64,000 bases of DNA from Lachnospiraceae bacterium. GTDB lineage: Bacteria; Bacillota; Clostridia; Lachnospirales; Lachnospiraceae. This document shows, piece by piece, positions 7,800 to 23,424 of the stretch (position 1 is its first letter; every line of letters starts with the position of its first letter). The notes under the pieces are model-generated. The model saw only the letters and a program-made list of their open reading frames with translations, was not told the origin of the DNA and ran no database searches. Location of the stretch: assembly GCA_016283775.1 (NCBI GenBank), contig JAEENL010000175.1:30766-94765 (forward strand), given 5' to 3'. A program made the translations under genes and the position numbers.

Positions 7800-8759
7800 T
7801 TATTTCTGGAGAAGATGGATCTTGAAGCCTGCAAAATCGTCCTTAAGGTAGATGCGGACCATCTTGTCGTTCTTGTAGATCGCGGAATCCTTGTCAAACT
7901 CAAAGCCCTGCATCTCCATGTGGTAGATGGCTCTCTCGATATAGTTGGTGCCGATGGCGAGATGGCCGTGTGTGCCGGGGCCGGGAGTTTTGTTGAGCTC
8001 GATCGCGGAGCTTGCAAAAATGCTGCTGTTTCCGATCTTTGACTCAAATCCGAAGAACTGCTCAAACATCTTTGCGGTCTTAAGAGCCTGCTCTTCGTTC
8101 TCGCAGTTGATGCCGACATGCTTAAGTTCAAATCCGAGCATGGTCCTTACTGCTTCCTTTGTGAGGCGTTTGATCTCGTCGAAGTTGCCTTCTTTTATGA
8201 GGTCGCCCTTTACCATCCAGGAACCTCCGCATGCAACGATCTTCGGGAAGTCAAGGTAATCCTTGAGATTTGCGGCATTTACGCCGCCTGTGGGCATGAA
8301 GCGCACATTGGTGTAAGGAGCTGCCATTGCCTTGATCTTTGCGATGCCGCCGGACTGCTCGGCAGGGAAGAATTTTACAACGTCGAGGCCGAGTTCAAGA
8401 GCTGCTTCGATGTCTGTGGGACTTGATGTGCCGGGGGTGATCGGAACGCCCTTTTCCTGGCAGTAACGTACTACCTTGGGATTGAGTCCGGGGCTTACGA
8501 TGAACTTTGCGCCGGCGTTAACTGCTCTGTCCACCTGCTCTGTGGTGAGGACTGTGCCTGCGCCCACGAGCATTTCGGGGAACTCTTTGCTCATGATGCG
8601 GATGGATTCTTCTGCCGCATCTGTACGGAATGTTACCTCGGCAACGGGAAGACCGCCTTCGCAAAGCGCTTTTGCAAGAGGCGCGGCGTCTTTTGCGTCG
8701 TTAAGGACAACTACGGGGATGATTCCAAGTTTGGAAAACTGTTCAATGATGGGATGCAT
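7800..8759 (-). CDS. eda: KDPG/KHG aldolase fused to a C-terminal VOC/glyoxalase-like domain
   Basis: The N-terminal ~205 aa look like a class I Eda aldolase (IIPVVVLNDAKDA, LPVAEVTFRT, VVKFFPAE, PTGGV). The C-terminal ~110 aa (LKHVGINCENEEQA...GHLAIGTNYIERA) look VOC-like. Confidence 0.8.
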   Translation of the reverse strand: MHPIIEQFSKLGIIPVVVLNDAKDAAPLAKALCEGGLPVAEVTFRTDAAEESIRIMSKEFPEMLVGAGTVLTTEQVDRAVNAGAKFIVSPGLNPKVVRYCQEKGVPITPGTSSPTDIEAALELGLDVVKFFPAEQSGGIAKIKAMAAPYTNVRFMPTGGVNAANLKDYLDFPKIVACGGSWMVKGDLIKEGNFDEIKRLTKEAVRTMLGFELKHVGINCENEEQALKTAKMFEQFFGFESKIGNSSIFASSAIELNKTPGPGTHGHLAIGTNYIERAIYHMEMQGFEFDKDSAIYKNDKMVRIYLKDDFAGFKIHLLQK

Positions 8760-8801: not shown

Positions 8802-9572
8802 TCATTTCAAAAGTCCCAAGAGCCTCGCTGAAATGAAGTTGTGCTCATAGATGAAGTTGAGTAACGGGTTTGCGTTTATAAGTGAGAGCGTGCTCTGGCC
8901 GAATTCCGTGGTGCCGAGCATGGTGACGATGGTAAAGAAGAGCCACACGAGAAGGAGCCCTTCGAAAAGTCCCGCAGCGCCTCCGAGAACGGTGTTCAGC
9001 TGTTTGAGTCCCGGGATCTTTGTGATGAGGTTTAAGAGCTTTCCTACCACAAACACCACGATCGCCACGCCTATGAAGGTGATGAGGAAACCTACCGCGT
9101 TTACCACTGCTCCGGTGAGCACTTCGCATACATGGGCCTCGAGAGGCTTTAATTTCCCGCGGGCAAACTCGTCGGTATGTTTTGAAACATAATCCTTAAA
9201 GCCTTCGCTCTTTGTGACGGCTTTTCTGAGAGCCGAAGGAAGTCCAAAGCTTTCGAGCACCGCATCGACGTTGTTTGAAACGGCTTCTTCCGAATCGCCT
9301 TCAGCCGGCGCGTCCTTTGAGGACATTTTAGAGACGGCGTTGTCGTAAGCTTTTTCAAGATCCACAAAGCTATCGATCTTTTCGTAGACGCTCTTGTGGA
9401 AACTTTCGTTGTTTTTAAGCATATTTACAACGATAGGGCAGAGGATGATCGTGAGGACGATGATGAGAAAGGTGGCGAGCAGAGAATATATCGTGCTGGC
9501 AAAGCCCTTCACAAGTCCGTAGATCAGACCTCCCACAAGCAATATAAGTACAGTTATCAATAACCAGTTCAT
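8802..9572 (-). CDS. CvpA-like membrane protein
   Basis: The N-terminus MNWLLITVLILLVGGLIYGLVKGF and the multi-TM layout are typical of the CvpA family. Confidence 0.6.
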   Translation of the reverse strand: MNWLLITVLILLVGGLIYGLVKGFASTIYSLLATFLIIVLTIILCPIVVNMLKNNESFHKSVYEKIDSFVDLEKAYDNAVSKMSSKDAPAEGDSEEAVSNNVDAVLESFGLPSALRKAVTKSEGFKDYVSKHTDEFARGKLKPLEAHVCEVLTGAVVNAVGFLITFIGVAIVVFVVGKLLNLITKIPGLKQLNTVLGGAAGLFEGLLLVWLFFTIVTMLGTTEFGQSTLSLINANPLLNFIYEHNFISARLLGLLK

Positions 9573-10711
9573 TCACTGACCTCCGTGTTGCGCTTGCTCT
9601 TTGCAAGCTTGATGGTGCGGATCCGCCCGGAATCCACAAGGAAATATCGGTTGTCTCCGCCGAAATATACCGTATCCAGCGTGCCGTCAAAGGTACCGCT
9701 GTATTTTAATGTCCCGTTTTTACGATAGATGTGTACTTTTCCCGGACTAATGAGCGCCGCTTCGCCGTTTGCGGCCTGCAGTACGTCATATTCCGGGACC
9801 TTTCTGATCGTGCCTTGTTTTTTGCCGTCTGTCCCGTAAAAAGTGAGGATGCGTTCGGAATCCTTTTCGGTAACGGTGCAGACACCCTCGTCAAACATCG
9901 AGAGGTCCACGATCGTGCCTTCGGGTTTTATGTCGCACAGGGCTTCGGGTATCTCTTCCATCCCGTAAAGGACAAAGCCGTCCTCGAGCGTGATCCCGAC
10001 TGTGTCGTTCCCAAGGAATTCCACGTCATAGACGAGTCTTCCCGTGTATTTTTTCTGTCCTACGATGTTGTCGATGAAATTCTTGCCGACACTCGCCATA
10101 TTGTAAAACGTGACCTTGCTCACGAGCTCGTCTTTGTCAAAGGAGATGCAGAGAGTCACAAGCTTTGTCCCGTCATCAGAAAGCGCGATGTCAACAGGAA
10201 AGCCGTCCTGCTTTGTGCTGGTCGCAAGCTCCACCCTGAGGCTGCCGCCTATGTCGTATACCTGGACAATGTCGGTATTTCCGCTGTCCATGAGCACGGC
10301 GGTCACACCCTGCTTTGCGACGGCGATGCGGCTGATGGGGTAGTTGGTGGTGTAACTTGTGTAGATGCCGCTCTCGGGGATCACATAAACGCTGGTGCCG
10401 TTTATATCGGCGATGGCGGAAACCTCGCCGCACGATACGACTTCAGGGTTGTCCAGGCTGAAGGCCGCTTCCCATATGAGGGAACCCGTTCCGTTTATGG
10501 CTCTGGCGCCGTTTATCGAACTCATCGCAAGGATGTTTGCGTCATTATGGCATTTCACGTCCGAGGAGAGCTTCATTTCACTGATGACCTCATAAGACGA
10601 ATAGGTGCCGTACAGCCTTTCTTTTATGTAGTGCCATGCGAAGGCGGCAAGCGTGCCTATGACCACGACCGCGATTATTATTTTTATAAGTGATCTGGTA
10701 CTTTCTTTCAT
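9569..10711 (-). CDS. Hypothetical membrane-anchored extracytoplasmic protein (beta-rich)
   Basis: ATG 10711 gives MKESTRSLIKIIIAVVVIGTLAAF (signal anchor). The rest is beta-strand-like with repeated G-T/S motifs. The family may be a DUF seen in Clostridia, but this is unverified. Its stop overlaps the start of the CvpA-like gene. Confidence 0.55.
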   Translation of the reverse strand: MKESTRSLIKIIIAVVVIGTLAAFAWHYIKERLYGTYSSYEVISEMKLSSDVKCHNDANILAMSSINGARAINGTGSLIWEAAFSLDNPEVVSCGEVSAIADINGTSVYVIPESGIYTSYTTNYPISRIAVAKQGVTAVLMDSGNTDIVQVYDIGGSLRVELATSTKQDGFPVDIALSDDGTKLVTLCISFDKDELVSKVTFYNMASVGKNFIDNIVGQKKYTGRLVYDVEFLGNDTVGITLEDGFVLYGMEEIPEALCDIKPEGTIVDLSMFDEGVCTVTEKDSERILTFYGTDGKKQGTIRKVPEYDVLQAANGEAALISPGKVHIYRKNGTLKYSGTFDGTLDTVYFGGDNRYFLVDSGRIRTIKLAKSKRNTEVSE

Positions 10712-10871
10712 ACGCCTGTTTTGTGTTAAGCCAATATTCCACATCATTTTAGCACTATGCGGCATCTTCGGCAAGATATTTTGGTTGCACTTGAGTTTTA
10801 AGGTGTTTTATGTTAAATTAATAGTTTGGACCATAAGGTCCTTGAGTTCAGTGATAAACAGGAAACATGTA

Positions 10872-12740
10872 ATGCCGAAGAGATTCGTGAAAACAGCATA
10901 TATTTGTCTTTTGGCTCTGTTTCTCACAGGCTGCAACGGAGAGGTTTTTTATGACGACCCCGTAAGACCTACCCCCGTAGCAACTTCCGGAATATCGGGA
11001 ACGGTGACCGGCAATCCCGGGAAAAAAGATCCGGACGCTACGAAAGCACCTGCGGTGACAACGCCCGATCCCGGAAAAAAGAGCGCACCTTACGGGATTC
11101 TTACAAGGATCACACATGAAGCGGGAACAAAGCTCACGCCCGAGGAGTTCATCTCAGGGTATGAGGGGACCGTCACGGTGCTCACCGCATTTTCGGAGGA
11201 AGATCTGCTGGCGGTGGGAGCGTCGTTTGCCGCGGCCATCGACTGTGACGGCAGAGAGGTCACGGTGATCGTTGACATTTCTGACAATGCCGCGCCTATT
11301 TTCAAGGGGATACAGGATATCGAGATAAACGAGGGCGACACGATAGCGTACAAAAAGGGCGTGTCAGCCTATGACAACGTTGACGGCGAAGTTTCGTTCT
11401 CTGTCGACAATTCCAATGTGGACACGGATAAAGCCGGGATATACACGGTCACATATTCTGCCACCGACAGAGCAGGAAACACGGCCGAAGTCACCGCAAA
11501 GGTGACCGTGAATGCCTTGCGTGACCAGCTCCAGATACTTATCGACGATAAGGCGGATGAGGTCATAAGGAGCGTTGTGACTGACAATATGACCAAACGC
11601 GAAAAGGCATATGCGGTCTTTGTATGGTGCCATACAAATCTCACTTATAAAGGTGAAGAACGGGACCTGACCTACGATGAAGCCGCCTACGCAGGGCTGT
11701 TTGACCATGCCGGCGACTGCTATGTTTCTTATGTGCTCCTCGATGTGCTCTACAGGAGAATGGGCTTTGAGACCATGATGGTAGAGCGTGTGGGGGGAAC
11801 GAGCGACCATTTCTGGAACTATGTAAACTACGGAGAGGGCTGGTATCACTGCGACTGCATAAAACGCCGCACCGGAAACAAGGCTTTTGACGACTACTGG
11901 TGCTTCATGCAGACAGACAGCCAGGTTGAAGGATACAACAAGCTCCGCGGCGATACGATGCCAAACTGCTACACCTATGACAAGTCAGCATTCCCGGAAT
12001 GTGACAAGTTTAAGATATATGACGGCAACACGCATGAGTTCATACTTGACAAGGAAGCACCCGTTATAAATGGTGCGATGGATCTTTTTATCGCGAGGGG
12101 AGAGACGGTCGCCTACAAGAAAAATATCAGGGTGACGGACAATTCCGGCGAGGATATCACGGTGCACGTTAAAAACAGCGGCGTGAACCTGAATGTGGTT
12201 GGCATATATCCTATCACCTATTACGCAGAGGACTCTTCCGGAAACAGATCGGAGGTATCGGTCAATCTGCATGTCTGTGAGCCATCGGCTGAGCTCGCTT
12301 ATGACATTGCCGATACGCTTCTCGCAAATATCACAAATGACAAAATGTCCCAGTATGACAAGGCAAAGGCGATCTATTTCTGGATCGCGTACCACATTGC
12401 CTACGTGGATGCGCCCACAGGTACGGATCCGCTTCTTGCGGCTTACGACGGACTCACAAAATACAAGGGTGACTGCTATGTTTACGCAAATGTGGCACAG
12501 CTCCTTCTCACACGGGCGGGTATCGAAAACATCATGATCGTGAAATACCCGGTCTATGATGAGGAGCATTTCTGGAGCATCGTAAACGTGGGAGACGGCT
12601 GGTATCATTTTGACAGCACGCCCTGGTGGGACGGAACGCAGATATTTATGTGGACCGAATCCCAGCTTGAGAAGTTTTCAAAGAGAAACGATATGTCTCA
12701 CGCATACGACAAGAGCCTGTATCCTGAAGTGGTGCAATAG
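10872..12740 (+). CDS. Lipoprotein with two tandem [Ig-like + transglutaminase-like cysteine peptidase] modules
   Basis: ATG 10872 gives a lipobox (LALFLTGCNG). Two Ig-like segments are present (NAAPIFKG...GIYTVTYSATDRAGN and KEAPVING...GIYPITYYAEDSSGN). Each is followed by a Cys-His-Asp core (GDCYVSY...DHFWNYV...WYHCD and GDCYVYA...EHFWSIV...WYHFD). Confidence 0.75.
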   Translation: MPKRFVKTAYICLLALFLTGCNGEVFYDDPVRPTPVATSGISGTVTGNPGKKDPDATKAPAVTTPDPGKKSAPYGILTRITHEAGTKLTPEEFISGYEGTVTVLTAFSEEDLLAVGASFAAAIDCDGREVTVIVDISDNAAPIFKGIQDIEINEGDTIAYKKGVSAYDNVDGEVSFSVDNSNVDTDKAGIYTVTYSATDRAGNTAEVTAKVTVNALRDQLQILIDDKADEVIRSVVTDNMTKREKAYAVFVWCHTNLTYKGEERDLTYDEAAYAGLFDHAGDCYVSYVLLDVLYRRMGFETMMVERVGGTSDHFWNYVNYGEGWYHCDCIKRRTGNKAFDDYWCFMQTDSQVEGYNKLRGDTMPNCYTYDKSAFPECDKFKIYDGNTHEFILDKEAPVINGAMDLFIARGETVAYKKNIRVTDNSGEDITVHVKNSGVNLNVVGIYPITYYAEDSSGNRSEVSVNLHVCEPSAELAYDIADTLLANITNDKMSQYDKAKAIYFWIAYHIAYVDAPTGTDPLLAAYDGLTKYKGDCYVYANVAQLLLTRAGIENIMIVKYPVYDEEHFWSIVNVGDGWYHFDSTPWWDGTQIFMWTESQLEKFSKRNDMSHAYDKSLYPEVVQ

Positions 12741-12762
12741 AGGATACGGCGGAGGCTTTATT

Positions 12763-13515
12763 TTGGAAATTCATTCGGAAAACAGAAAAATACTCGGCGT
12801 GATCGGAGGCCTCGGCCCCATGGCTTCGGCTTATTTCATGAGGCTTGTGACGGAAATGACCGATGCGAAGACCGACCAGGAACATATTGAGATATTGCTG
12901 CACAGCAAGCCGCAGCTGCCTGACCGCACAGGTTTTATCATCGGAGAGAGCAAGGAATCGCCACTGCCCGGCATGCTCGAGGCAGGACAGGGATTGAGGC
13001 GCTCAGGCGCGGACATCATCGCGATCCCGTGCGTTACAGCGCATTTCTTCCAAAAGACGCTTGAGGAAGAAATAGGGATTCCTGTGCTGAATGCGATAGA
13101 AGATGCCGCAGAAGTCCTAAAACAGGCGGGTGTGAAAACAGCAGGCATCATGGCGACCGACGGCACTGTAAAAAGCGAACTGTTCCCGAAGGTGTTTAAG
13201 TCTCACGGGCTGGAATGTGTGATCCCGAGTGCCGAAAGGCAGCGTGACGTGATGCATGTCATCTATCACAACGTCAAAGCCGGGATACCGATAGAAAAAG
13301 ACAGGTTCATGGGCATCACCCGCGAACTCTTTGACAAAGGCGCAGAGGCTGTGATACTGGGCTGCACGGAGCTTTCGATCATGAAGCGTGACAACCCGGA
13401 TATTTTGCAGTGGGGCGGCGCGCGGCACGGGTTTCTCGATATCCTTGAAGTGCTCGCGCAGAGCAGCGTGAGGAAATGCGGGAAGCTGAAAGCTGAGTAT
13501 GAAAAATTGATATAA
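12763..13515 (+). CDS. Aspartate racemase-type Asp/Glu racemase superfamily protein
   Basis: ILGVIGGLGPMAS, DQEHIEILLHS..LPDRT, and the two catalytic Cys contexts IPCVTAHFF and LGCTELS. The TTG start at 12763 lies 7 nt after GGAGG (12751-12755). The ATG at 12610 in the track would overlap the upstream gene. Confidence 0.8.
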   Translation: MEIHSENRKILGVIGGLGPMASAYFMRLVTEMTDAKTDQEHIEILLHSKPQLPDRTGFIIGESKESPLPGMLEAGQGLRRSGADIIAIPCVTAHFFQKTLEEEIGIPVLNAIEDAAEVLKQAGVKTAGIMATDGTVKSELFPKVFKSHGLECVIPSAERQRDVMHVIYHNVKAGIPIEKDRFMGITRELFDKGAEAVILGCTELSIMKRDNPDILQWGGARHGFLDILEVLAQSSVRKCGKLKAEYEKLI

Positions 13516-13532
13516 GCGCCACGGAGGCAATT

Positions 13533-15053
13533 ATGCAAAACAATCTTTTGGATTATCTTTACGATATAGTGGACAGGGTACCGGACAAGACGGCGTTTTC
13601 AAACGGAACGGACAAGCTTTCGTTTAAGGAACTATACGAAGAGTGCGGCGCGGTCGCATCGGCTGTGGCTGAGCGCGGGATCTACAAGAAGCCTGTCGTG
13701 GTCTTTATGAAAAAAAGCCCCGCTGAGATCTCCGCATTTTTCGGAGTGATAAGAAGCGGTAACTATTATGTTCCGATAGACGAGGAAATGCCAAAGATCA
13801 GGGTCGACCTGATACTTGACAATGTGCAGACGGATCTTATCATCTGCGACGAGTCTACCATCGAGATCGCAAAGGGTTTTAAGTACAAATGCGAGCTTGC
13901 GCTCTATTCGGATCTCATAAAACACGAGACCGACAGCGAAAAGCTTAAGTTTATCTATGACCACCAGATAGACACGGATCCCATCTATATCGTGTTCACA
14001 TCAGGTTCCACAGGCATTCCCAAAGGCGTTGTGGCATGCCACAGGTCGGTCATCGACTATATCGAACAGCTTTCGGAAACTCTCGGGTTCAATGAGAACA
14101 CTGTTTTCGGAAACCAGTCGCCGCTTTACTTTGACGCATGCCTGAAAGAGGTATATCCGACACTTAAGTTCGGCGCGACCACATATCTCATCCCGCGCGA
14201 GCTTTTTATGATACCTGTGAAGCTTGTGGAATTTATCAATGAACATGAGATAAATACCATCTGCTGGGTCGTTTCCGCGCTCACCATGATCTCGGCGTTC
14301 GGCACTTTCAAAACGGTCGTGCCGCACACGCTCCGCACCATAGCGTTCGGAAGCGAGGTGTTCCCGATAAAGCAGTACAAGCTGTGGAAAGAAGCGCTTC
14401 CTGAAGTAAAGATGACAAATCTTTACGGACCCACGGAATGCACCGGCATGAGCTGCTTTTTCCATGTGCCCGAAAACTACGATCCGGAGGGACCCATCCC
14501 CATCGGAAGGCCCTTCAAAAACACAGAGATACTGCTCCTTGACGACAATGGCAGACTTGTGCCCGACGGGGAACAGGGAGAGATCTGCATAAGAGGTACC
14601 GCGCTCACTCTGGGCTATTACAACAATCCCGAGAAGACCGCCGAGTGCTTTGTACAAAATCCGCTAAACCACGTATATTCGGAGCTTATCTATAAGACCG
14701 GAGACATCGCAAAGCGCGACAAGGACGGAAATCTCATCTTTGTGTCCCGGAAAGACTATCAGATAAAGCACATGGGACACCGTATCGAACTCGGAGAGAT
14801 CGAGGCAAACGTTTCATCGATGGCCGGTATCCGCATGAATGCCTGCATCTATGACGAAGAAAAAGGAAAGATCGTGCTCTTTTACGTAGGAGACATGGAG
14901 AGCGCCGAATTAACTTCGGAACTAAAGGGGAGCCTTCCCAGATATATGCTCCCGAACCGTGTGATAAAGGTGGATTCACTGCCCCTCACACCCAACGGTA
15001 AACTTGACAGAAAGACACTGAAAGCCGACTACAAGAGTGGCGCGAGAGCCTGA
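13533..15053 (+). CDS. Stand-alone amino-acid adenylation enzyme, DltA-like carrier-protein ligase
   Basis: 506 aa with ANL core motifs IVFTSGSTGIPKG, YFDAC, NLYGPTECT, YKTGD, GRKDYQIKHMGHRIELGEIE and PNGKLDRK. The size and FDxx..xxYP context resemble DltA. Confidence 0.8.
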   Translation: MQNNLLDYLYDIVDRVPDKTAFSNGTDKLSFKELYEECGAVASAVAERGIYKKPVVVFMKKSPAEISAFFGVIRSGNYYVPIDEEMPKIRVDLILDNVQTDLIICDESTIEIAKGFKYKCELALYSDLIKHETDSEKLKFIYDHQIDTDPIYIVFTSGSTGIPKGVVACHRSVIDYIEQLSETLGFNENTVFGNQSPLYFDACLKEVYPTLKFGATTYLIPRELFMIPVKLVEFINEHEINTICWVVSALTMISAFGTFKTVVPHTLRTIAFGSEVFPIKQYKLWKEALPEVKMTNLYGPTECTGMSCFFHVPENYDPEGPIPIGRPFKNTEILLLDDNGRLVPDGEQGEICIRGTALTLGYYNNPEKTAECFVQNPLNHVYSELIYKTGDIAKRDKDGNLIFVSRKDYQIKHMGHRIELGEIEANVSSMAGIRMNACIYDEEKGKIVLFYVGDMESAELTSELKGSLPRYMLPNRVIKVDSLPLTPNGKLDRKTLKADYKSGARA

Positions 15054-15077
15054 TCGGGAGCAGAAAAGCAAGGATTT

Positions 15078-16163
15078 ATGAAAAGTTGGATAAAGTGGAT
15101 CGTGACCGCAGCGGTGGTCATTCTGGTCCTTTGGTGCCTGCAGCGGCTTGTTATGCCCAAATATGCAAAGGGTATCGTTGAGGGCGCCTTCATAGCAGAA
15201 TATTACAAAGACAGACCCGACCATGATGTGATATTTGTGGGGGACTGCGAAGTGTATGAAAACTTCACTCCTGTGCTCCTGTGGCAGGAATACGGGATAA
15301 ACAGCTATATCCGCGGAAGCTCACAGCAGACGGTATGGCAGTCGTATTACCTTGTCGAGGACACCTTCAGGTATGAAAAGCCGGATGTCGTGATCTTTAA
15401 TGTCCTTTCGATGGAGTTTGACAAGCCCGAGGACGGCGGGAGCAACATGGAAGCATACAACCGCATGACCCTTGAGGGAATGAGATGGAGCATGTCAAAG
15501 GTAAAAGACATACAGGCTTCCATGGTAAAGGGCGAGAAGTTTTTGGATTATGTTTTTCCTATCCTCCGGTATCATTCGAGGATCACGGAGCTTACGGCAG
15601 ACGATCTTAAATACTGCTTTAAGACCGAGAAGGTCTCGCATAACGGCTATTATCTGAGAGTTGACGTGAAGCCCGCGGCAAACGTCCCGGGTGGGCGTAT
15701 CCTGTCCGATTACAGCTTCGGAGAGAATGCATATTCCTATCTCGACAAGATGACAAAGCTTTGCAAGGAAAACGATGTGGAGCTGATCCTCATAAAGGCG
15801 CCGAGCCTTTACCCTTACTGGTATCCCGAATGGGACGCTCAGATGGAGGAATACGCAGAAAAGCATGGCCTTGAATATATCAATTTTCTCGATCTTAAGG
15901 AAGAATGCGGCCTTGACTATACCACAGACACATATGACGCAGGTCTTCATCTGAACCTGAGCGGCGCGGAAAAGACAACACGCTGGCTGGGGGAATTTCT
16001 CAGCACCCAAAAAGGTCTCAAGGACCGCAGAGATGACGAAAAACTCTCTGCCGAGTGGAAACAAAAGATCGAATTTTACGAGAATGCTATAGAGGAACAA
16101 AAAAAGAAATACGGTATCACCGATTTTACAGGAGAGTACAGAAAAGATGAAGAAAACAGTTAA
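15078..16163 (+). CDS. Membrane-anchored SGNH/DltD-like protein (putative MBOAT partner)
   Basis: N-terminal TM (WIVTAAVVILVLWCL), a block-I-like VIFVGDCEVYENF and a C-terminal block-V-like YDAGLHLN. The call rests on its position in a Dlt-like cluster. Confidence 0.55.
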   Translation: MKSWIKWIVTAAVVILVLWCLQRLVMPKYAKGIVEGAFIAEYYKDRPDHDVIFVGDCEVYENFTPVLLWQEYGINSYIRGSSQQTVWQSYYLVEDTFRYEKPDVVIFNVLSMEFDKPEDGGSNMEAYNRMTLEGMRWSMSKVKDIQASMVKGEKFLDYVFPILRYHSRITELTADDLKYCFKTEKVSHNGYYLRVDVKPAANVPGGRILSDYSFGENAYSYLDKMTKLCKENDVELILIKAPSLYPYWYPEWDAQMEEYAEKHGLEYINFLDLKEECGLDYTTDTYDAGLHLNLSGAEKTTRWLGEFLSTQKGLKDRRDDEKLSAEWKQKIEFYENAIEEQKKKYGITDFTGEYRKDEENS

Positions 16164-16740
16164 GATCATGTGCATGGTGCTCGGAACGGTACTTTTTATG
16201 AGTTTTGCCGCATGCGGAAAAGAGCAGGAGAAAGAACCTGAAGATGTGAGCGTGATATGTCCCACTGCGGATCCCGCGGATCCTTCAGGCGTTACGGACG
16301 TGACCTGCGACCCCGTGACCATTGACACACCCCCGACAGCTGCGGGTTTTGTTTTTACCTATAACGGGGTTGATGTGCGTGTGGACGCGGCTGCTGCGGA
16401 CATCGTGGACAAGCTTGGCACTTATTCGTATTTTGAAGCACCGAGCTGCGCGTTCAACGGACTTGACAAGATCTATACATACACGAGTTTTGAGATAGAC
16501 ACATATCCCGTCGGCGATGCGGACTACATTTCCGCCATCGTTTTCAAGGATGATACCGTGGAGACCGCGGAAGGCGCCTGCATAGGAATGAAAAAGGAAA
16601 AGGTGGTCGAAAAGTACGGCACTCCCTCAGAAGAATCCGGAACGCTCTCGATCTACGAGAAGGATTGCATGCAGCTTCGCTTTATCTTTGATGAAGAGGG
16701 TTATGTGATATCGATCCAGTATCTCAGCAGCGTGGTGTGA
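16147..16740 (+). CDS. Hypothetical lipoprotein
   Basis: Lipobox MSFAACG followed by an acidic/Pro-rich linker and a ~130-aa globular domain. Overlaps the upstream gene by 17 nt. Confidence 0.6.
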   Translation: MKKTVKIMCMVLGTVLFMSFAACGKEQEKEPEDVSVICPTADPADPSGVTDVTCDPVTIDTPPTAAGFVFTYNGVDVRVDAAAADIVDKLGTYSYFEAPSCAFNGLDKIYTYTSFEIDTYPVGDADYISAIVFKDDTVETAEGACIGMKKEKVVEKYGTPSEESGTLSIYEKDCMQLRFIFDEEGYVISIQYLSSVV

Positions 16741-16798
16741 ACTACCAATGAACTGTTTATTAAGATTTTTAATAATGGTGGAAAGTTTTTTTGTTCAG

Positions 16799-16807
16799 TG
16801 ATATAAT
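16799..16807 (+). promoter_or_regulatory. Candidate extended -10 promoter (TGaTATAAT)
   Basis: TG at 16799-16800 and TATAAT at 16802-16807. There is only a weak -35 (TGGAAA, 16779-16784). Lies in a 343-nt non-coding gap. Confidence 0.4.
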
Positions 16808-16814
16808 ACAGACA

Positions 16815-17083
16815 ATCCTAGAGTGTTCGACACTCCTTGCAATTTTGAACCTACAAAACTTTAAACGGGATTCCTATATTGCGTGACGGATGTCAGGCCG
16901 CAACCTCATCGCCCGGATCATATCCGGCCGCAGCGGAAGGCAGCAAGTCAGGCTGCGGTCACCCACCTGGCTGATAGCTAGGAGTCAAAATGCGGGAAAC
17001 GGCATATCCGGGATTATTTTTGTACCCGAAATGGGATTCGGGCGGGTTGTGAAGGATTTGACTCAAGAAATAACAGGTTATCG
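16815..17083 (+). promoter_or_regulatory. Long structured 5' leader or unclassified cis-regulatory RNA candidate
   Basis: About 270 nt of GC-rich non-coding sequence between the candidate promoter and ATG 17084. Hairpins: 16821-26/16830-35, 16913-18/16922-27, 16928-34/16952-58 and 17025-30/17037-42. Duplicated GUCAGGC and GGCCGCA segments allow alternative pairing. Confidence 0.35.
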
Positions 17084-18568
17084 ATGAAAAGATTTATCTT
17101 CAGTTTAATATTATTGTCTCTTTTTTGTTTCGGGGCAGCGGCATGTTCTTTGAAAGCGCAGAACGATACGGGATTTTTGGGACCGGTGTGGACACTCACG
17201 CCCACTCCCACGCTCACGCCGACTCTGATGCCGACTCTTACGCCCACAACATCCCCCACTATGACACCGGTGCCTACGGAGACACCGACTCCGACGCCTA
17301 CTTTCGGGCCGGACTATGAACCGCCTGTCATCTCAGGCGTACAGCCTATCGTTGTCGCCACGGGAGGAACTGTGTCCTACAAGCGCGGCGTTGAGATCAC
17401 CGACAACTCGGGAGGAGACGTGGAACTCATCATCGACAATTCCACAGTCGACCTTTCAAAGCCCGGAGAATATGATATTTCCTACACCGCCATAGATCAC
17501 GCGGGAAACACTACGATCATCTTTTCCACGGTCACGGTCAAAGACGCGGATATCCTTATGAAAGAAACGGAAGCGAACCGTCTTGCGGATGAGGTCATAG
17601 CCGAAGTCATAAACGATGACATGACCGAGTGGCAGAAGATTTACAAGCTCTGGCAGTGGGTAAGAGGAAACGTGAGATACTCCTACACCACGGGAGACAT
17701 GACTTCGGAATACACCGGGGCTTACGAAGGACTTCACGACAGGATTGGCGACTGCTACAGCTTTTACGCAACATACAAGATACTCCTTGACAAAGCGGGA
17801 ATACAAAATTTAAAATGTACAAGGGTCGGGGGCGAGAGCGACCACTATTGGAACCTTGTGATGTATGAGGGAAAATGGTACCACTGCGATGCCAGCCCGA
17901 GGCGTCTTGAAGACCCGTTCAACACATTCCTGCAGACGGATCTCCAGATAAAGGCCTATACCGAGAGCTATCCGGAGAAGCCGAACTACTACACGATAGA
18001 CTGGGATGCCTATCCCGAAAGGGGCACTGTCCCGGTTTATGACGGCTGGACACACAAAAGATTAAAGTCCGGAGTGGTGCTTACAAAGTCAGCGCTTCTT
18101 GCAAAGATCGAGGAACTGAAGACAGAGTTCCCCGCAGGCACCTACTGGAACGGTGAGAACCTCGGCGTGACCGATGTGCCGTGCGAAAATACTCCGGATT
18201 ATGCGGGCTGCAACTACTATCACGGACCGTCAAGCCTGTGCTTCGAATCGCATGATGCGGGATGGCAGTGCCTTGGATTTGCCAGCCTTTTGAGCGACAA
18301 ATGCTTCGGAGAGGACACTTCCGCCTATATCGTACGTGATTACGACCAGGTGAGGATCGGTGACCAGGTGAGACTTTCGCCGAACGAAAACAGCCCTTAT
18401 CACAGCGCATTCATCATCGACAAGACGGACGAATACATCGTTGTCGCGGAGTGCAACAGGGATTTCAGGACCTGCCTCATCGAGTGGGGAAGAGTGATAC
18501 TAAAGAGCGAGCTCGACAACATGGAAGTGTGGTATATCAGCAGGAGCTGTGAGATCAAAGACAAATGA
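17084..18568 (+). CDS. Lipoprotein: Thr/Pro linker + Ig-like + transglutaminase-like core + C-terminal CHAP/NlpC-like papain-fold domain
   Basis: Lipobox FGAAAC and a TPTPTLTPT linker. Ig-like segment YEPPVISG...GEYDISYTAIDHAGN. Transglutaminase-like core GDCYSFY...DHYWNLV...WYHCD. The C-terminus has GWQCLGFAS (Cys) and PYHSAFII (His). Confidence 0.75.
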   Translation: MKRFIFSLILLSLFCFGAAACSLKAQNDTGFLGPVWTLTPTPTLTPTLMPTLTPTTSPTMTPVPTETPTPTPTFGPDYEPPVISGVQPIVVATGGTVSYKRGVEITDNSGGDVELIIDNSTVDLSKPGEYDISYTAIDHAGNTTIIFSTVTVKDADILMKETEANRLADEVIAEVINDDMTEWQKIYKLWQWVRGNVRYSYTTGDMTSEYTGAYEGLHDRIGDCYSFYATYKILLDKAGIQNLKCTRVGGESDHYWNLVMYEGKWYHCDASPRRLEDPFNTFLQTDLQIKAYTESYPEKPNYYTIDWDAYPERGTVPVYDGWTHKRLKSGVVLTKSALLAKIEELKTEFPAGTYWNGENLGVTDVPCENTPDYAGCNYYHGPSSLCFESHDAGWQCLGFASLLSDKCFGEDTSAYIVRDYDQVRIGDQVRLSPNENSPYHSAFIIDKTDEYIVVAECNRDFRTCLIEWGRVILKSELDNMEVWYISRSCEIKDK

Positions 18569-18603
18569 CGGAACAATCCGTTTAAGCAAAAAAGGAGACA
18601 AAA

Positions 18604-18837
18604 ATGGAAAGACTGCTTGAAATATTGTCGGAACTTCATCCCGACATTGATTTTGAAACCGAGGAGCATCTGATCGACGACGTTATCATCGATTCTTTTG
18701 ACATCGTCACATTGATATCCGAGATACAGGAAGAGTTTGACGTGACTATCAGCGCCAAAGACATCATCCCGGAAAATTTCAATTCCGCAAAAGCAATCTG
18801 GGAGCTTATCGAACGTATTGAGGAAGAGGAAGCCTGA
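18604..18837 (+). CDS. Small carrier protein, DltC-like (phosphopantetheine attachment IIDSFDIV)
   Basis: 77 aa and acidic. The DSF serine context and following helix (IVTLISEIQEEFDV) resemble D-alanyl carrier protein. AAGGAG SD is present. Confidence 0.8.
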   Translation: MERLLEILSELHPDIDFETEEHLIDDVIIDSFDIVTLISEIQEEFDVTISAKDIIPENFNSAKAIWELIERIEEEEA

Positions 18838-18843
18838 TCTTTT

Positions 18844-20403
18844 ATGTTGTTCACCTCATATGAGTTCCTTGGCTTTGTTCTGATACTGGGGCTTTTATAT
18901 TACATCCTTCCGAAAAAGGCAAAATGGCCTCTGCTGCTCATTGCGAGCCTGGTGTTTTATGCGTTTTCGGGAGTGAAGGCGCTCATCTTTGTGGGAATCA
19001 CCGCGTTCACGGTATATGGTGCCGGAATGCTGATCGACAGGAACCGCGCCGCTGTGGATGCCTATATCAAGGCAAACAAGGACACACTTTCAAAAGAAGA
19101 AAAAAAGGCATACAAGGCAAAAGCGGCACGCATACGCACCGTGTATCTGCTGCTTTGCATGTGCCTTAATCTCGGAATTCTCGTTGCGCTGAAATTTGAG
19201 TTTGTTTCCCTTCTGCAGCCGATGGGAATTTCATTTTATACCCTGAGAGCAGTGGGATATCTTGTGGATATCCACAGGGGAAGCTATAAGGCGGAGAGGA
19301 ATCCATTGAGGTTCCTGCTTTTCATTTCGTTCTTCCCCATAGTGATACAGGGACCTTTGAGCAATTACGGGGATATCGCTCCGACTTTGTTTGAGGGGAA
19401 CGCCTTTGACAAAAAGAACGTGAGCTTTGGCTTACAGCGCATGCTCTGGGGCTTTTTTAAAAAGCTTGTGGTGGCTGACCGCGTGATGAAGGCTGTGATG
19501 GTCTATATCGGTGATCCCGTGACTTACCGCGGAGCATATGCGCTCATGGGAATGCTTCTCTACACGGTTGAGCTCTATGCCGATTTCACGGGAGGCATCG
19601 ACATCACGATTGGTGTTTCGGAAATGCTTGGGATCAAGGTTTCCGAAAACTTTGAAAGACCGTATTTCTCCACCTCCCTTAAAGAATATTGGAGACGCTG
19701 GCACATCACGATGTGCGAATGGTTCAAGAACTATGTGTTTTTCCCGGTTTCCGTGTCAAAGCCGATGCAAAAGCTTTTGAAGGTCACACGGAAAGTCTTT
19801 GGGGAACGTGTCGGGAAAAGGATCCCGGTATATGTGTCATCGTTTATCGTGTGGCTCCTTACGGGACTCTGGCACGGACCGACATGGAATTTTGTCGTAT
19901 GGGGGCTTTTGAACTGGCTGATCCTCATGGTATCAGAGGAGTTTGAACCCTTGTACGAAAAGTTCCACAAGCGGTTCGGATGGACCAATGCGGCGGGCTA
20001 CAAGGTTTTCATGATGATAAGGACATTCATCCTGATCACTGTATTAAATCTGTTTGACTGCTTTGTGAATGTAAAAACGACGCTCACTTCGATCGCATCG
20101 GTCGTGACCGCGGGTAATTACAAGGGTGCGCTTGCGGGCGCATACAAGGCTTTCGGCCTTTCGGCGGCGGATCTTGTGATACTTGGCATAAGCATAGCGA
20201 TCATGTTTACGGTGAGCATCGTTCAGGAAAAAATGTCAGGAAACGGGCAGACAAGCGGAAACAGCAAAGTAAGAGAAAGACTTTCGGCGCTTCCTTTCCC
20301 TGTGCAGGCATGCATCTGGACCGCGCTCTTTGCGGCAGTGCTGCTTTTCGGAGCATATGGAGTGGGATACGATCAGAGTCAGTTTATATATAACAAGTTT
20401 TAA
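18844..20403 (+). CDS. MBOAT family O-acyltransferase, DltB/AlgI-like
   Basis: Polytopic 519-aa ORF with the conserved His region EYWRRWHITMCEWFKNYVFFPV and WHGPTWNF. Confidence 0.85.
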   Translation: MLFTSYEFLGFVLILGLLYYILPKKAKWPLLLIASLVFYAFSGVKALIFVGITAFTVYGAGMLIDRNRAAVDAYIKANKDTLSKEEKKAYKAKAARIRTVYLLLCMCLNLGILVALKFEFVSLLQPMGISFYTLRAVGYLVDIHRGSYKAERNPLRFLLFISFFPIVIQGPLSNYGDIAPTLFEGNAFDKKNVSFGLQRMLWGFFKKLVVADRVMKAVMVYIGDPVTYRGAYALMGMLLYTVELYADFTGGIDITIGVSEMLGIKVSENFERPYFSTSLKEYWRRWHITMCEWFKNYVFFPVSVSKPMQKLLKVTRKVFGERVGKRIPVYVSSFIVWLLTGLWHGPTWNFVVWGLLNWLILMVSEEFEPLYEKFHKRFGWTNAAGYKVFMMIRTFILITVLNLFDCFVNVKTTLTSIASVVTAGNYKGALAGAYKAFGLSAADLVILGISIAIMFTVSIVQEKMSGNGQTSGNSKVRERLSALPFPVQACIWTALFAAVLLFGAYGVGYDQSQFIYNKF

Positions 20404-20474
20404 GCTACGGGGGCGGACAAGGACCGGAATGCCTCCGGCATTCCAATTATGGTCCCTCAAAGCCGGGACGGGCT

Positions 20475-20501
20475 CCCTCCCTGCTTTGAGAGCAGGGAGG
20501 G
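20475..20501 (+). promoter_or_regulatory. SD-sequestering hairpin in front of the asnB-like gene
   Basis: A perfect 11-bp stem pairs CCCTCCCTGCT (20475-20485) with AGCAGGGAGGG (20491-20501) around a TTGAG loop. The 3' arm contains the only SD (GGAGG), 4 nt before ATG 20505. Confidence 0.45.
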
Positions 20502-20504
20502 CAA

Positions 20505-22343
20505 ATGTGTGGCATAGCAGGTTTTTTTGATCTTCATAACAACAGCAAAACAGACATTTCCGTCATGGAACGGATGCTTGATGCGATAAAGCACCGCGGG
20601 CCCGACGGATCGCGTATTTTGGAACTCAAAGGGCTCACGCTTGGATTTAACAGGCTTTCGTTCCTCGACCTCACGGGCGGGATGCAGCCAATCAAAAATG
20701 AGGATGAGACCGTCACTGTCATCTGTAACGGTGAGATCTTTAACTACAGGGAACTGAAGGAAGAACTTGTAAAAAAAGGTCATTCCTTCAGGACAGAGAC
20801 CGATATCGAAGTGATCCTCCATCTTTACGAGGAGGAGGGGCTCGATTTCCCCAACCGTCTTAACGGACAGTTTGCGATAGCGCTCTATGACGAAAAGATA
20901 AAAAAACTGTTCCTCGTAAGGGACCAGATGGGAATATGCCCCCTGTTCTATTCGCTGATCGACGGGAAACTGGTTTTTGCGTCTGAGATAAAGGCCATAA
21001 TGGAGTATCCGAACGCTCCGAGAAAGCTCAACATGAAGGCTGTGGATCAGCTCATGAACTATCCGGGCGTGGTGTCTCCCGAGACCTTTTTCAAGGGCGT
21101 AAAATCGCTTAAAGCGGGCCATATGATCACAGCGGAATACGGTCACGACCTGATCGATGAGGAATACTGGGACCTGCAGTATTCTCCCGAAGAAGAGGAC
21201 AAGGGCGAAGCCTACTATGTGGAGCGTCTCAGGGAACTCATAAAGGATGCGATCACAAGGCGCCTCATCGCCGATGTGCCGATCGGCTTCTATGTGTCAG
21301 GAGGTCTTGACAGCTCTGTTGTTGCCTGCTTCATCGGAAAATACCTGCTGAACAGTATGTACTCTTTTTCGGCGGAGATCGGTGACGGTGAGCTTGACGA
21401 GAGCCGTTTCCAGCAGATGGTGAAGGAATGCGTGCATTCGCACCACTATATCACAAAGATCACCGAAAAGGAGATCTGGGAAAATCTCGAAAGCGTTATA
21501 TATCACTGCGAATCCGGCGTCAAGGAAAGCTACGATACCGCGGCGTTCCTGCTTTCAAAGCTTGTGAGCGGTTCGCCCGCAAAGGCGGTTCTTACCGGTC
21601 AGGGCTCTGATGAATTTTTCTCGGGCTATGTCGGATACATGGTGGACCTTTTTCGCCACATGCAAAAGGATAAAATGACAAAAGAGGAACTCGAAGTGAA
21701 TGAGCGCCTCTGGGGAGATCCTTATTTCCGCTATGAGAGGAACCATCCTGAGATCAGAAAGATACACGAAAAGGTCTATTCCGCAAATGTGCGCGGAGAG
21801 ATCGGGTCATTTTCGGCTTTTGCGGAAAGCCCCATTAATGTGAAGCGCGTGGAGGGGTTAAGCTCTCAGAAGCGCCGTTCCTACATCGATTACAAGCTCA
21901 GACTTTCCGACCATCTCCTCACAGAGCACGGCGACAGGATGTTTTTCTCGCATTCCGTTGAAGGACGTCACCCGTTCCTTGACAAGGACCTTCTGGAGTT
22001 TGTGATCACGATCCCGGATAAGTATAAGCTTAAGGGTGTGAACGAGAAATATATTCTTAAAAAAGCGGGTGAAGGCGTTGTGCCCGAACCTATATTAAAA
22101 CGCAAAAAGTTCCCGTTCCAGGCGCCCGGAATGTCCTCGATGATAAAAGAAGCCTCGGCGCTGCCTTATCTTGACGAAACACTTATCAGGAAATATGGTG
22201 TGTTTGACGTCGATTACGTGAACGAGATGAAAAAGATATACAGCGCCCCTGATTTCAAACTCATGGGAGCATTTGAGATAGACTATCTTTTGATAGTGAT
22301 GACAACGACCATGCTTTGCGAAAGGTATTCGCTGACATTGTAG
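20505..22343 (+). CDS. asnB: Asparagine synthase (glutamine-hydrolysing) family amidotransferase
   Basis: N-terminal nucleophile MCGIAG, GATase II domain and PP-loop YVSGGLDSS. 612 aa. Confidence 0.9.
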   Translation: MCGIAGFFDLHNNSKTDISVMERMLDAIKHRGPDGSRILELKGLTLGFNRLSFLDLTGGMQPIKNEDETVTVICNGEIFNYRELKEELVKKGHSFRTETDIEVILHLYEEEGLDFPNRLNGQFAIALYDEKIKKLFLVRDQMGICPLFYSLIDGKLVFASEIKAIMEYPNAPRKLNMKAVDQLMNYPGVVSPETFFKGVKSLKAGHMITAEYGHDLIDEEYWDLQYSPEEEDKGEAYYVERLRELIKDAITRRLIADVPIGFYVSGGLDSSVVACFIGKYLLNSMYSFSAEIGDGELDESRFQQMVKECVHSHHYITKITEKEIWENLESVIYHCESGVKESYDTAAFLLSKLVSGSPAKAVLTGQGSDEFFSGYVGYMVDLFRHMQKDKMTKEELEVNERLWGDPYFRYERNHPEIRKIHEKVYSANVRGEIGSFSAFAESPINVKRVEGLSSQKRRSYIDYKLRLSDHLLTEHGDRMFFSHSVEGRHPFLDKDLLEFVITIPDKYKLKGVNEKYILKKAGEGVVPEPILKRKKFPFQAPGMSSMIKEASALPYLDETLIRKYGVFDVDYVNEMKKIYSAPDFKLMGAFEIDYLLIVMTTTMLCERYSLTL

Positions 22344-22353
22344 AGGTGGGATA

Positions 22354-23424
22354 TTGTCCGGATACGACGATCACAATGACGAATACAGAAACAGAAAGAT
22401 CATAAGGACAAAGATATTGTGGGTCCTTATCCTCTCACTGGTGCTGGCGCTCCTCATCCTCACAGGTTTTCTGCTCGACAGACTTGCGGGAAACAAGGGA
22501 GAATATTTTGTCGCGACGCCGACGCCCACTCCTGTGAACGGAAGAGAGGTCACGCCGACACCTGTTCCTACAAAGGATCCTGCTTTGATCACGCCTCTTC
22601 CCACGGAGACACCCACACCCACGCCTGCGGAGCCTGAGACTACGCCTGCTCCGACGCCCACCGACATAGGAGGAGTCGTACTGACACCCACGCCTACTGA
22701 GCCTGTGGAGCACGATTTCACGCCGTGGGTCAGTGATGATACCGAGGACAAGGAAAAACAGCAGGAATTGCAGCAGGAGATCCTTAAGGCGGGAGGATTT
22801 ATCCCTATAGCAGAGCTCTTCCCTAATCTTGCGACTTACTTTAAGCGCGACAAGGTCACAGGTATCGAGCTTGGCTGGATCGATCAGAATCCTGAGCTCC
22901 CCAGCGGGTGTGAGAGCGTTTCGCTCACCATGGTCCTGAATTACTACGGGTTTGACCTTAAAAAGACCGATATCTCGGACAGATATATGATCTACGGCGA
23001 CAATTTCGTTACGAGTTTTGAGGGAAATCCTTATTCAAAGCAGGGAGGAGCCGTGTTCGCTCCGGGACTTGCCACAGTTGCAAACATCATTCTTTCGGAA
23101 AGAGAGAGCACGCTGAAAGCCGAAGATGTTTCAGGTACGGATTTTGAGACGCTGATCACGGAATATATATATCATTATGTTCCGGTAGTGATCTATACGA
23201 CGACTGATTATGGGAAAGTAAGCTATTATGATGCCGTAAGGACCTACAATGGCAGGGAATATCACGCTGTGCGGCGCGGACACTGCGTTGTGCTCGCAGG
23301 GTATGACGAGACGGATAACAGCGTGATCCTGTACGATCCCATTTCAGGTGTCATCAAGGTCGATAAGGAAAAGGTAAAGTCGATATACGACGATTTCTAT
23401 CAAATGGCGGTCGTGGTCAAGTGA
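22354..23424 (+). CDS. Membrane-anchored C39-like (papain-fold) peptidase with Thr/Pro linker
   Basis: TTG start 7 nt after GAGG. TM ILWVLILSLVLALLILTGFLL and a TPTPV-rich linker. Cys context ELPSGCESVSLTMVLNYYG and His context RGHCVVLAGYDE. Confidence 0.65.
   Translation: MSGYDDHNDEYRNRKIIRTKILWVLILSLVLALLILTGFLLDRLAGNKGEYFVATPTPTPVNGREVTPTPVPTKDPALITPLPTETPTPTPAEPETTPAPTPTDIGGVVLTPTPTEPVEHDFTPWVSDDTEDKEKQQELQQEILKAGGFIPIAELFPNLATYFKRDKVTGIELGWIDQNPELPSGCESVSLTMVLNYYGFDLKKTDISDRYMIYGDNFVTSFEGNPYSKQGGAVFAPGLATVANIILSERESTLKAEDVSGTDFETLITEYIYHYVPVVIYTTTDYGKVSYYDAVRTYNGREYHAVRRGHCVVLAGYDETDNSVILYDPISGVIKVDKEKVKSIYDDFYQMAVVVK

Follow-up and report, generated by a model that had tools for sequence, protein, structure and literature searches.

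The subject of this report is a gene module in a 64,000-nucleotide (nt) stretch of DNA from a Lachnospiraceae bacterium (GenBank assembly GCA_016283775.1, contig JAEENL010000175.1, positions 30,766 to 94,765 of the forward strand), hereafter referred to as the window. A run of same-strand genes within it includes seven that encode a transglutaminase-like lipoprotein, an aspartate-type racemase, a stand-alone adenylation enzyme, a small carrier protein, a membrane-bound O-acyltransferase (MBOAT), a membrane-anchored SGNH-fold protein and a small lipoprotein. These seven genes occur together in dozens of species-level genomes, far beyond what chance would allow. We consider it fairly probable that they specify a carrier-dependent MBOAT/SGNH relay, Dlt-like but not orthologous to Dlt, that attaches a D-amino acid other than D-Ala to an extracytoplasmic acceptor in the envelope. 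The attached D-amino acid would probably be acidic.

In the mechanism that we propose, the two-Cys racemase would make a D-amino acid in the cytoplasm, with D-Asp as the best guess, and the adenylation enzyme, with its enlarged cavity and invariant Lys, would activate this D-amino acid and load it onto the 77-residue carrier protein. The MBOAT would then transfer the aminoacyl group across the membrane to the Tyr within the FIYNxF motif at its own C-terminus, after which the anchored SGNH-fold protein would accept the group on Cys57 as a thioester and hand it over to the final acceptor. Outside the cell, the transglutaminase-like thiol enzyme and the lipoprotein would act as partners, possibly in transfer, trimming or scaffolding. 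In around one quarter of the modules, including this one, an AsnB-type amidotransferase would amidate the free side-chain carboxylate, most likely on the carrier-bound intermediate, and this amidation would turn a neutral zwitterionic substituent into a cationic one. The underlying Dlt-type architecture had been recognized in an earlier reading of the sequence, hereafter the original prediction, and its four components, the adenylation enzyme, the carrier protein, the MBOAT and the anchored SGNH-fold protein, are all present. What we infer from there is which amino acid is attached and in which configuration, when it is amidated, what accepts it, and what the transglutaminase-like protein and the lipoprotein do.

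Conservation of the module

Relatives of the adenylation enzyme are encoded by at least 581 genomes in a scan that included one genome per species. The synteny counts given in this report refer to the best 80 loci, of which 42 have full 10-kb flanks, and the core was defined by tblastn and blastp searches of the window proteins against these 80 loci, followed by clustering of the flanking open reading frames (ORFs). Almost all of the loci come from Lachnospiraceae, including the genera Acetatifactor, Agathobacter, Roseburia, Butyrivibrio, Blautia and Lachnoclostridium. The core encompasses the adenylation enzyme (80 loci), the carrier protein (76), the racemase (75), the MBOAT (70), a transglutaminase-like protein of about 549 residues (67, upstream of the racemase), the SGNH-like protein (64) and the small lipoprotein (61). 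The seven genes are all found on one strand, they are all present in 38 of the 42 full-flank loci, and at these full-flank loci the module spans a median of 7.8 kb. The usual gene order is transglutaminase-like protein, racemase, adenylation enzyme, carrier protein, MBOAT, SGNH-fold protein and small lipoprotein, and the small lipoprotein and one transglutaminase-like protein are as much core members as the others.

The association of the racemase with the Dlt-like genes, on which the original prediction depended, is general: the racemase gene is located directly upstream of the adenylation gene at 75 of the 80 loci, and at every one of the 42 with full flanks. Outside the core, the flanking genes are not conserved and are metabolic, including for example subunits of oxaloacetate decarboxylase. 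A tie to teichoic-acid or polysaccharide genes was considered and rejected for the 10-kb flanks, which vary from locus to locus. The module is also carried by a number of cultured bacteria, namely Agathobacter ruminis JK623, Acetatifactor aquisgranensis DSM 110981, Lachnospiraceae bacterium NC2008 and Anaerocolumna spp.

Partial modules are also found. Two loci with full 10-kb flanks (L015 and L049) have the racemase and adenylation genes, and in L049 also the carrier gene, with no MBOAT, SGNH or lipoprotein gene nearby; four others (L034, L036, L077 and L078) are likewise partial, but these are truncated at contig ends. Evidently the module may be divided between places in the genome, as in the window, or lose some of its genes. 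Complete modules are additionally found on contigs that have been binned outside the Lachnospiraceae, as Bacteroides sp. (L069), Paludibacteraceae (L071) and Oscillospiraceae (L003, L005 and L072), with adenylation enzymes that are 63-69% identical. For these modules, mis-binning seems more likely than transfer into Bacteroidota.

The proteins of the predicted relay

The racemase scores 206.3 bits with the TIGR00035 model, against a cutoff of 93.1, and its best match in the PDB is the aspartate racemase of P. horikoshii (1JFL, 169 bits). It keeps both catalytic Cys residues, within the motifs IPCVTAH and GCTELS, as well as the Arg of a PDRT motif and the Lys of a VKAG motif, which are the equivalents of Arg48 and Lys164 in the alignment with 1JFL, and these residues are conserved in 76 orthologs. 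Arg48 and Lys164 of the aspartate racemase are residues with a role in handling the substrate. Models of the MurI-type glutamate racemases remain far below their cutoff (29.6 vs 147). Because the racemase is most like the P. horikoshii enzyme, with the catalytic residues and the Arg48 and Lys164 equivalents all kept, D-Asp would be the best single guess for the cargo. The racemase most likely starts at a TTG codon at 12763, which is found behind a GGAGG site and agrees with the public call of a 250-residue protein, named by NCBI only as 'amino acid racemase'.

The adenylation enzyme passes the TIGR01733 model (333 bits vs a cutoff of 317) but not the DltA equivalog models TIGR01734 (288.8 vs 559.85) and PRK04813 (297.3 vs 476), and a search of the PDB places it equally close to the A domains of nonribosomal peptide synthetases (NRPSs), as represented by LgrA (214 bits), and to DltA (214 bits). 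Its pocket code, D-A-K-C-A-G-L-G-M-K, does not vary among 81 sequences that are 63-84% identical, apart from position 299, which is Ala in 78 of them. The pocket can be aligned without gaps to that of B. cereus DltA (3DHV), whereby D197 corresponds to D201, L198 to A202, M201 to K205 (encoded at 14145-14147) and C269 to G273. In DltA, the methyl group of D-Ala is held in a small cavity made up of Leu197, Met200 and Cys268 (PMC8972799), and the Cys of this cavity shuts out L-Ala (PMC8972799; PMC4176424). The Leu, Met and Cys of the D-Ala cavity are replaced here by Ala202, Lys205 and Gly273, two of which are smaller and one of which is a Lys, and this is true of all 81 sequences.

As far as the sequence can tell, then, the pocket is no D-Ala pocket, in keeping with the original prediction, which had assigned the route to an acidic D-amino acid. 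The cavity appears to be enlarged, and the substrate is predicted to have a longer side chain that is able to pair with the Lys. Since the same pocket code is shared by 81 sequences, all of the modules would activate one and the same substrate, and this would not be alanine. When the adenylation enzyme was used to search for sister systems, the best 150 matches, ranked by summed score, were all giant multi-module NRPSs.

The carrier protein harbors Ser30 within an invariant DS motif, and its scores with the DltC models do not reach their cutoffs (32.5 vs 68 and 21.8 vs 52.35). Its gene ends 6 nt before that of the MBOAT and is almost always found directly upstream of the MBOAT gene across the loci. 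The MBOAT itself matches PF03062 with 65.8 bits (cutoff 27) and has WRRWH and LWHG His motifs that are conserved in 69 sequences; with the DltB model TIGR04091 it scores 149.3 against a cutoff of 375, and it bears the label 'DltB' in IMG. Two extra C-terminal transmembrane helices precede the shuttle motif, as in the PatA-type enzymes, and the protein terminates with QFIYN[Q/R/K]F in each of the 68 full-length orthologs, with FIYNKF encoded at 20383-20400 in the window. The FxYxxF hexapeptide acts as an acyl shuttle, in which the Tyr takes D-Ala on the DltX microprotein and acetyl on the C-terminus of PatA, and pathways with the fused motif do without a carrier protein since acyl-CoA is used (PMC12148441). 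No separate DltX was seen, the motif being found on the MBOAT's own C-terminus, although no search was aimed at small DltX-like ORFs. Because the carrier gene adjoins that of a fused-motif MBOAT and the adenylation enzyme is always present, the module joins a Dlt-type carrier donor with a PatA-type fused shuttle.

The SGNH-fold protein matched no NCBIfam family, and hence has no DltD score, and its profile gave no significant match to PDB sequences. Its AlphaFold2 model has a mean predicted local distance difference test score (pLDDT) of 69, with a confident catalytic core, and the best fold match of this model in the PDB, as determined with Foldseek, is the DltD of E. faecium (6PFX; E 6e-5), with GDSL/SGNH hydrolases and PatB as the next matches. 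The invariant residues occur in the canonical SGNH order: G55-D56-C57-E58, which comes right after strand 1, then G80, N108 and D287...H291. The nucleophile position is thus held by a Cys (Cys57, encoded at 15246-15248) and not a Ser, giving 'CGNH', and from the motif order and the predicted secondary structure we infer that Cys57 is the nucleophile and that a thioester intermediate is formed. The gene is adjacent to that of the MBOAT at most loci. Public data contain more than 7000 homologs, whose only name is 'SGNH/GDSL hydrolase family protein', and single homologs are found on up to 396 metagenomic contigs. Some close homologs carry the Pfam accession PF27429.1, which is absent from the Pfam copy that was used, and a newer release may already define this subfamily.

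The position of the core transglutaminase-like protein, directly upstream of the racemase, is occupied in the window by the first protein of the run. It matches PF01841 in two stretches, and both of its GDC...HxW...D triads are intact; scores of 70.6 and 28 bits with PF01841 (cutoff 23) were obtained for the transglutaminase-like cores of the window. Within the family, the GDC, HxW and D triad is invariant in 23 aligned cores, and the motif is found in 63 of 72 members. The core transglutaminase-like protein is therefore likely to be catalytic, and is probably an active extracytoplasmic thiol enzyme. Comparison of the profile of its core with the PDB gave marginal matches (E about 0.01-0.05) to 'putative cysteine proteases' from structural genomics and to LapG-like proteins.

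The small lipoprotein consists of a lipobox, a variable linker and a domain of about 130 residues, which contains an invariant FEAPSCAFxGLDKIYTY stretch that includes a Ser-Cys pair. Pfam scans assigned no Pfam family to it. Its AlphaFold2 model (pLDDT 81) has a weak likeness to the CAP-associated N-terminal domain, to DUF4309 (YjgB) and to BLIP-like folds. For a purely structural BLIP- or DUF4309-like domain the invariant Ser-Cys stretch would be unusual, and it could represent a catalytic or an acceptor site. The 17-nt overlap of the lipoprotein gene with the end of the SGNH gene suggests that the two proteins form a complex.

Amidation, cargo and acceptor

A number of observations weigh against a relay of this kind for D-Asp. 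The score of the racemase with the equivalog model for the CuyB cysteate racemase, 189.3 bits, is less than 1 bit short of the cutoff of 190, and a sulfonate amino acid must be kept among the conceivable cargoes. A Lys at position 239 is typical of the Glu-activating NRPS code (DAKDLGVVDK) and not of Asp-activating codes, so that Lys239 of the present pocket recalls the Glu code and D-Glu deserves to be considered as the cargo. The Cys that selects the enantiomer in DltA is a Gly here; the enzyme could thus take an L-amino acid, and the D-configuration is therefore assigned from the adjacent racemase alone. With respect to the later steps, the model of the SGNH-fold protein is of moderate confidence (pLDDT 69, with a template modelling score of about 0.36 to DltD), and Cys57 was identified as the nucleophile by motif order and not by a residue-level structural superposition. 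Finally, AsnB is absent from about 76% of the modules and could be a peptidoglycan or housekeeping amidotransferase.

The AsnB of the window scores 450.8 bits with TIGR01536 (cutoff 267.1), though it does not reach the cutoff of the E. coli AsnB equivalog (322 vs 499), and it has conserved Cys2 (MCGIAG) and SGGLDSS motifs. A gene for AsnB is found inside the module at 19 of the 80 loci (about 24%; 59-88% identity) and at 10 of the 42 with full flanks. On a neighbour-joining tree of the adenylation enzymes, the modules with AsnB are distributed over at least four clades and have three or four gene orders, in all of which AsnB adjoins the MBOAT/SGNH unit. The presence of AsnB is also associated with the residue at position 5 of the shuttle motif, which then tends to be Arg or Lys instead of Gln: Arg is found at 13 of 18 loci with AsnB vs 2 of 50 without, and the window has Lys, while the two exceptions that have Arg or Lys but no AsnB (L055 and L070) are located inside an AsnB-positive clade. 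This covariation could reflect either an adaptation to an amidated cargo or the shared ancestry of an MBOAT-SGNH-AsnB block. Modules that have AsnB and modules that lack it share the same adenylation pocket, and amidation would therefore take place after loading.

It is possible, although we regard it as doubtful, that AsnB, together with the second transglutaminase-like protein and the C39-like peptidase of the window, is an accidental neighbour brought there by local rearrangement, with AsnB serving to amidate peptidoglycan or to make asparagine. In Bacillus subtilis and Lactiplantibacillus plantarum, it is meso-diaminopimelate that AsnB paralogs of this size amidate. An accidental association would accord with the lack of AsnB at 61 of the 80 loci, and with the restriction of the full 494-residue architecture of the second transglutaminase-like protein to near relatives of the window. 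It would also accord with the distribution of the C39-like gene, which has a homolog only in L001, the closest relative of the window; this protein, known in public data as 'C39 family peptidase' or 'YvpB', had been counted as part of the cluster by the original prediction but is probably peripheral and outside the module. For AsnB, in contrast, accident is argued against by its staying with the MBOAT/SGNH unit through at least three gene orders and at least four clades, and by its covariation with Arg or Lys in the shuttle. AsnB is thus probably an optional accessory with a functional link to the relay where it is present. Of the proposed wiring of AsnB to the Dlt-like genes, what stands is its recurrence beside MBOAT and SGNH in those clades, and what does not is any generality beyond the 19 loci.

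Unlikely, but still to be reckoned with, is that the same relay transports some other cargo, which could be D-Glu, D-Asn, D-cysteate or another polar D-amino acid; if it were D-Asn, AsnB would serve to boost the asparagine supply. Lys239 recalls the Glu code in combination with Ala236 and Gly301, the racemase falls less than 1 bit short of the cysteate-racemase cutoff and bears a noncommittal public name, and AsnB passes what is a generic asparagine-synthase model. Against this, the racemase has its nearest structural relative in an aspartate racemase that is defined biochemically, and the MurI models are missed by a wide margin. With regard to Glu, just 5 of the 10 code positions match the Glu code, and D-Glu is needed for peptidoglycan anyway, so a dedicated racemase for it would be less necessary.

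We think it improbable that the acceptor is something other than a wall polymer, whether a protein, such as the co-encoded lipoprotein with its invariant Ser-Cys pair, or a membrane glycolipid, or that the product is an amide link, made when the transglutaminase-like enzyme moves the aminoacyl group onto an amine. No gene for teichoic-acid, polysaccharide or peptidoglycan synthesis is conserved beside the module, the lipoprotein has its invariant FEAPSCAF motif, and the core includes two extracytoplasmic thiol enzymes, one with the Cys-SGNH arrangement and the other with the Cys-His-Asp triad of the transglutaminase-like family. Thioesters favour aminolysis. The fold matches of the lipoprotein, however, are weak and non-enzymatic, and the characterised MBOAT/SGNH pairs all acylate glycopolymers (PMC12148441). 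A more specific proposal would be an ATP-independent extracytoplasmic relay that passes from the carrier thioester to the MBOAT Tyr ester, the CGNH Cys thioester and possibly the Cys of the transglutaminase-like protein, and that ends in an amide, with D-Asp or D-isoAsn/D-Asn attached to an amine of peptidoglycan or a surface protein; this, too, we would rate as a long shot.

It is very unlikely that the module is simply the Lachnospiraceae version of DltABCD, D-alanylating teichoic acids with the racemase as a divergent source of D-Ala: although it shares the four-part architecture, the IMG label of the MBOAT, DltD as the best fold match of the SGNH protein and DltA models among the top NCBIfam matches, the adenylation, carrier and MBOAT proteins are far below the Dlt equivalog cutoffs, the SGNH protein matched no NCBIfam family, all three D-Ala cavity residues including the enantiomer-selecting Cys are changed, the racemase belongs to the Asp/Glu family and not to the pyridoxal phosphate (PLP)-dependent alanine racemases, the shuttle motif is fused instead of being provided by DltX, and the nucleophile position has Cys, not Ser.

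Layout in the window and relation to known systems

The ORF list places ten same-strand ORFs between 10872 and 23424 on the + strand (Table 1), and scans with the Pfam and NCBIfam hidden Markov models (HMMs) confirmed all ten with the domains that had been described for them. The genes are tightly packed, with spacers that range from the overlap of the SGNH and lipoprotein genes up to 101 nt, and are followed downstream by addB and addA. The metagenome assembly GCA_016648415.1 contains an identical stretch, on a contig of 45 kb. In public annotation the proteins of the run have generic names.

Table 1. Features of the gene run in the window, with the principal evidence for each
Feature	Coordinates	Strand	Evidence
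Double [Ig-like + transglutaminase-like core] lipoprotein	10872..12740	+	PF16403 and PF01841, two stretches each; lipobox LTGC
PLP-independent two-Cys racemase, aspartate-racemase type	12763..13515	+	TIGR00035; PF01177 at 1e-38
Stand-alone adenylation enzyme, 506 residues, DltA role	13533..15053	+	AMP-binding; TIGR01733
SGNH-fold protein, N-terminal transmembrane anchor, 361 residues, DltD role	15078..16163	+	Weak GDSL_2; AlphaFold2 fold match
Small core lipoprotein, 197 residues	16147..16740	+	Lipobox; without Pfam family
6S (SsrS) RNA gene	16812..17018	+	Rfam RF00013
Second transglutaminase-like lipoprotein, 494 residues	17084..18568	+	PF16403 and PF01841
Carrier protein, 77 residues, DltC role	18604..18837	+	PF00550
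MBOAT acyltransferase, DltB role	18844..20403	+	PF03062
AsnB-type glutamine-dependent amidotransferase	20505..22343	+	GATase_7 and Asn_synthase; TIGR01536
Membrane-anchored Peptidase_C39_2 protein, Pro/Thr-rich linker	22354..23424	+	PF13529 at 5e-21

In the window and in L001 the module, which is normally contiguous over about 7.8 kb, has undergone a lineage-specific rearrangement and is split by a 6S RNA gene. The region between 16740 and 17084 had been read as a leader of about 270 nt, but is occupied by a full-length 6S RNA gene, which scores 58.7 bits with RF00013 against a gathering threshold of 46.4 and covers model positions 1-187 of 187; a riboswitch or leader in this region was accordingly rejected. 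The RNA gene is preceded at 16779-16807 by a promoter-like site, TGGAAA-17-TATAAT, with an extended TG. It is found at the same place in L001 (13342-13546), is absent from five other loci that were scanned, and is no part of the pathway.

The second transglutaminase-like protein is made up of a signal sequence with a lipobox, a Pro/Thr linker, an Ig-like domain, a transglutaminase core with an intact GDC...HYW...D triad, and a Cys-rich C-terminal domain. The C-terminal 162-182 residues match no Pfam family at E<=10 save for one spurious SH3-B match, and the CHAP-like character once ascribed to this protein was not recovered, since no CHAP or NlpC/P60 HMM matches it. The public call for this gene (L081 13593-13787 and 13840-15036, equivalent to about 17125-17319 and 17372-18568 of the window) consists of a truncated protein of 398 residues together with a 64-residue ORF in another frame. 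The 494-residue ORF from 17084 is probably the right reading, because it opens with a textbook lipoprotein signal (...FGAAAC), which is followed by the Pro/Thr linker.

Upstream of the run, on the - strand between 7800 and 10774 of the window, are divergent genes for a DUF5711 membrane protein (9569-10774), a protein of the CvpA/Colicin_V family (8802-9572) and a KDPG-aldolase-domain protein (7800-8759). The DUF5711 protein is the only one of the three that was compared with the loci; it has upstream homologs only in L001 and L002, and its gene is outside the module.

In the gut and the rumen the Lachnospiraceae belong to the most abundant bacteria, and their envelope chemistry is poorly known. 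If an acidic or amidated D-amino acid is indeed placed on their surface, the module would represent a new determinant of surface charge, which bears on cationic-peptide resistance, phage adsorption and host recognition. Were the link to prove to be an amide, a dominant family of gut anaerobes would have a novel extracellular route to wall branches or cross-links. The cultured carriers make the prediction directly testable. No earlier description of such a module was found in the full-text literature, coverage of which did not extend to the MBOAT paper of Schultz et al. 2023.

Among the described systems, PatA/PatB and AlgI/AlgJ/AlgF/AlgX resemble the module in having two extra C-terminal transmembrane helices, a fused FxYxxF motif and a separate SGNH partner (PMC12148441). 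They differ in using acetyl-CoA as the donor, without an adenylation enzyme or a carrier, both of which the module has. Donation from a carrier protein and a fused acyl-shuttle MBOAT, which are treated as alternatives in PMC12148441, are thus joined in one module.

The Dlt system (DltA/C/B/X/D) is similar in that a stand-alone adenylation enzyme loads a carrier of about 77 residues, an MBOAT passes the group to the Tyr of FxYxxF, and an anchored SGNH-fold protein delivers it. In contrast to Dlt, the module is below the equivalog cutoffs for DltA, DltC and DltB, its cavity is Ala/Lys/Gly as opposed to Leu/Met/Cys, its shuttle motif is fused to the MBOAT instead of being found on a DltX microprotein, and it has Cys where DltD has the nucleophilic Ser. 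Beyond the Dlt set, it has an Asp-type racemase of its own, a transglutaminase-like thiol enzyme and a small lipoprotein, joined in some genomes by AsnB.

In the glycine modification of Vibrio cholerae lipid A by AlmE/AlmF/AlmG, a DltA-like ligase and a DltC-like carrier work with AlmG, a lipid A acyltransferase. Here, too, a Dlt-like ligase and carrier have been re-used to place an amino acid other than D-Ala on the envelope, but the system has neither an MBOAT/SGNH pair nor a racemase, and it acts on a Gram-negative outer membrane. In Lactococcus and Enterococcus, the aspartate racemase RacD, the ATP-grasp ligase AslA/Aslfm and the amidotransferase AsnH build the D-Asp cross-bridge. This pathway resembles the module as proposed in that D-Asp for the wall comes from an aspartate racemase and is amidated by an enzyme of the AsnB family, but ligation to the peptidoglycan precursor is cytoplasmic and is mediated by an ATP-grasp enzyme, with no carrier, MBOAT or SGNH protein. 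Judged by sequence, what would be new in comparison with these described systems is the combination of an Asp-type racemase of its own, a non-Ala pocket with a Lys, a carrier donor together with a fused shuttle, a Cys in the SGNH-fold protein, and two additional conserved extracytoplasmic partners.

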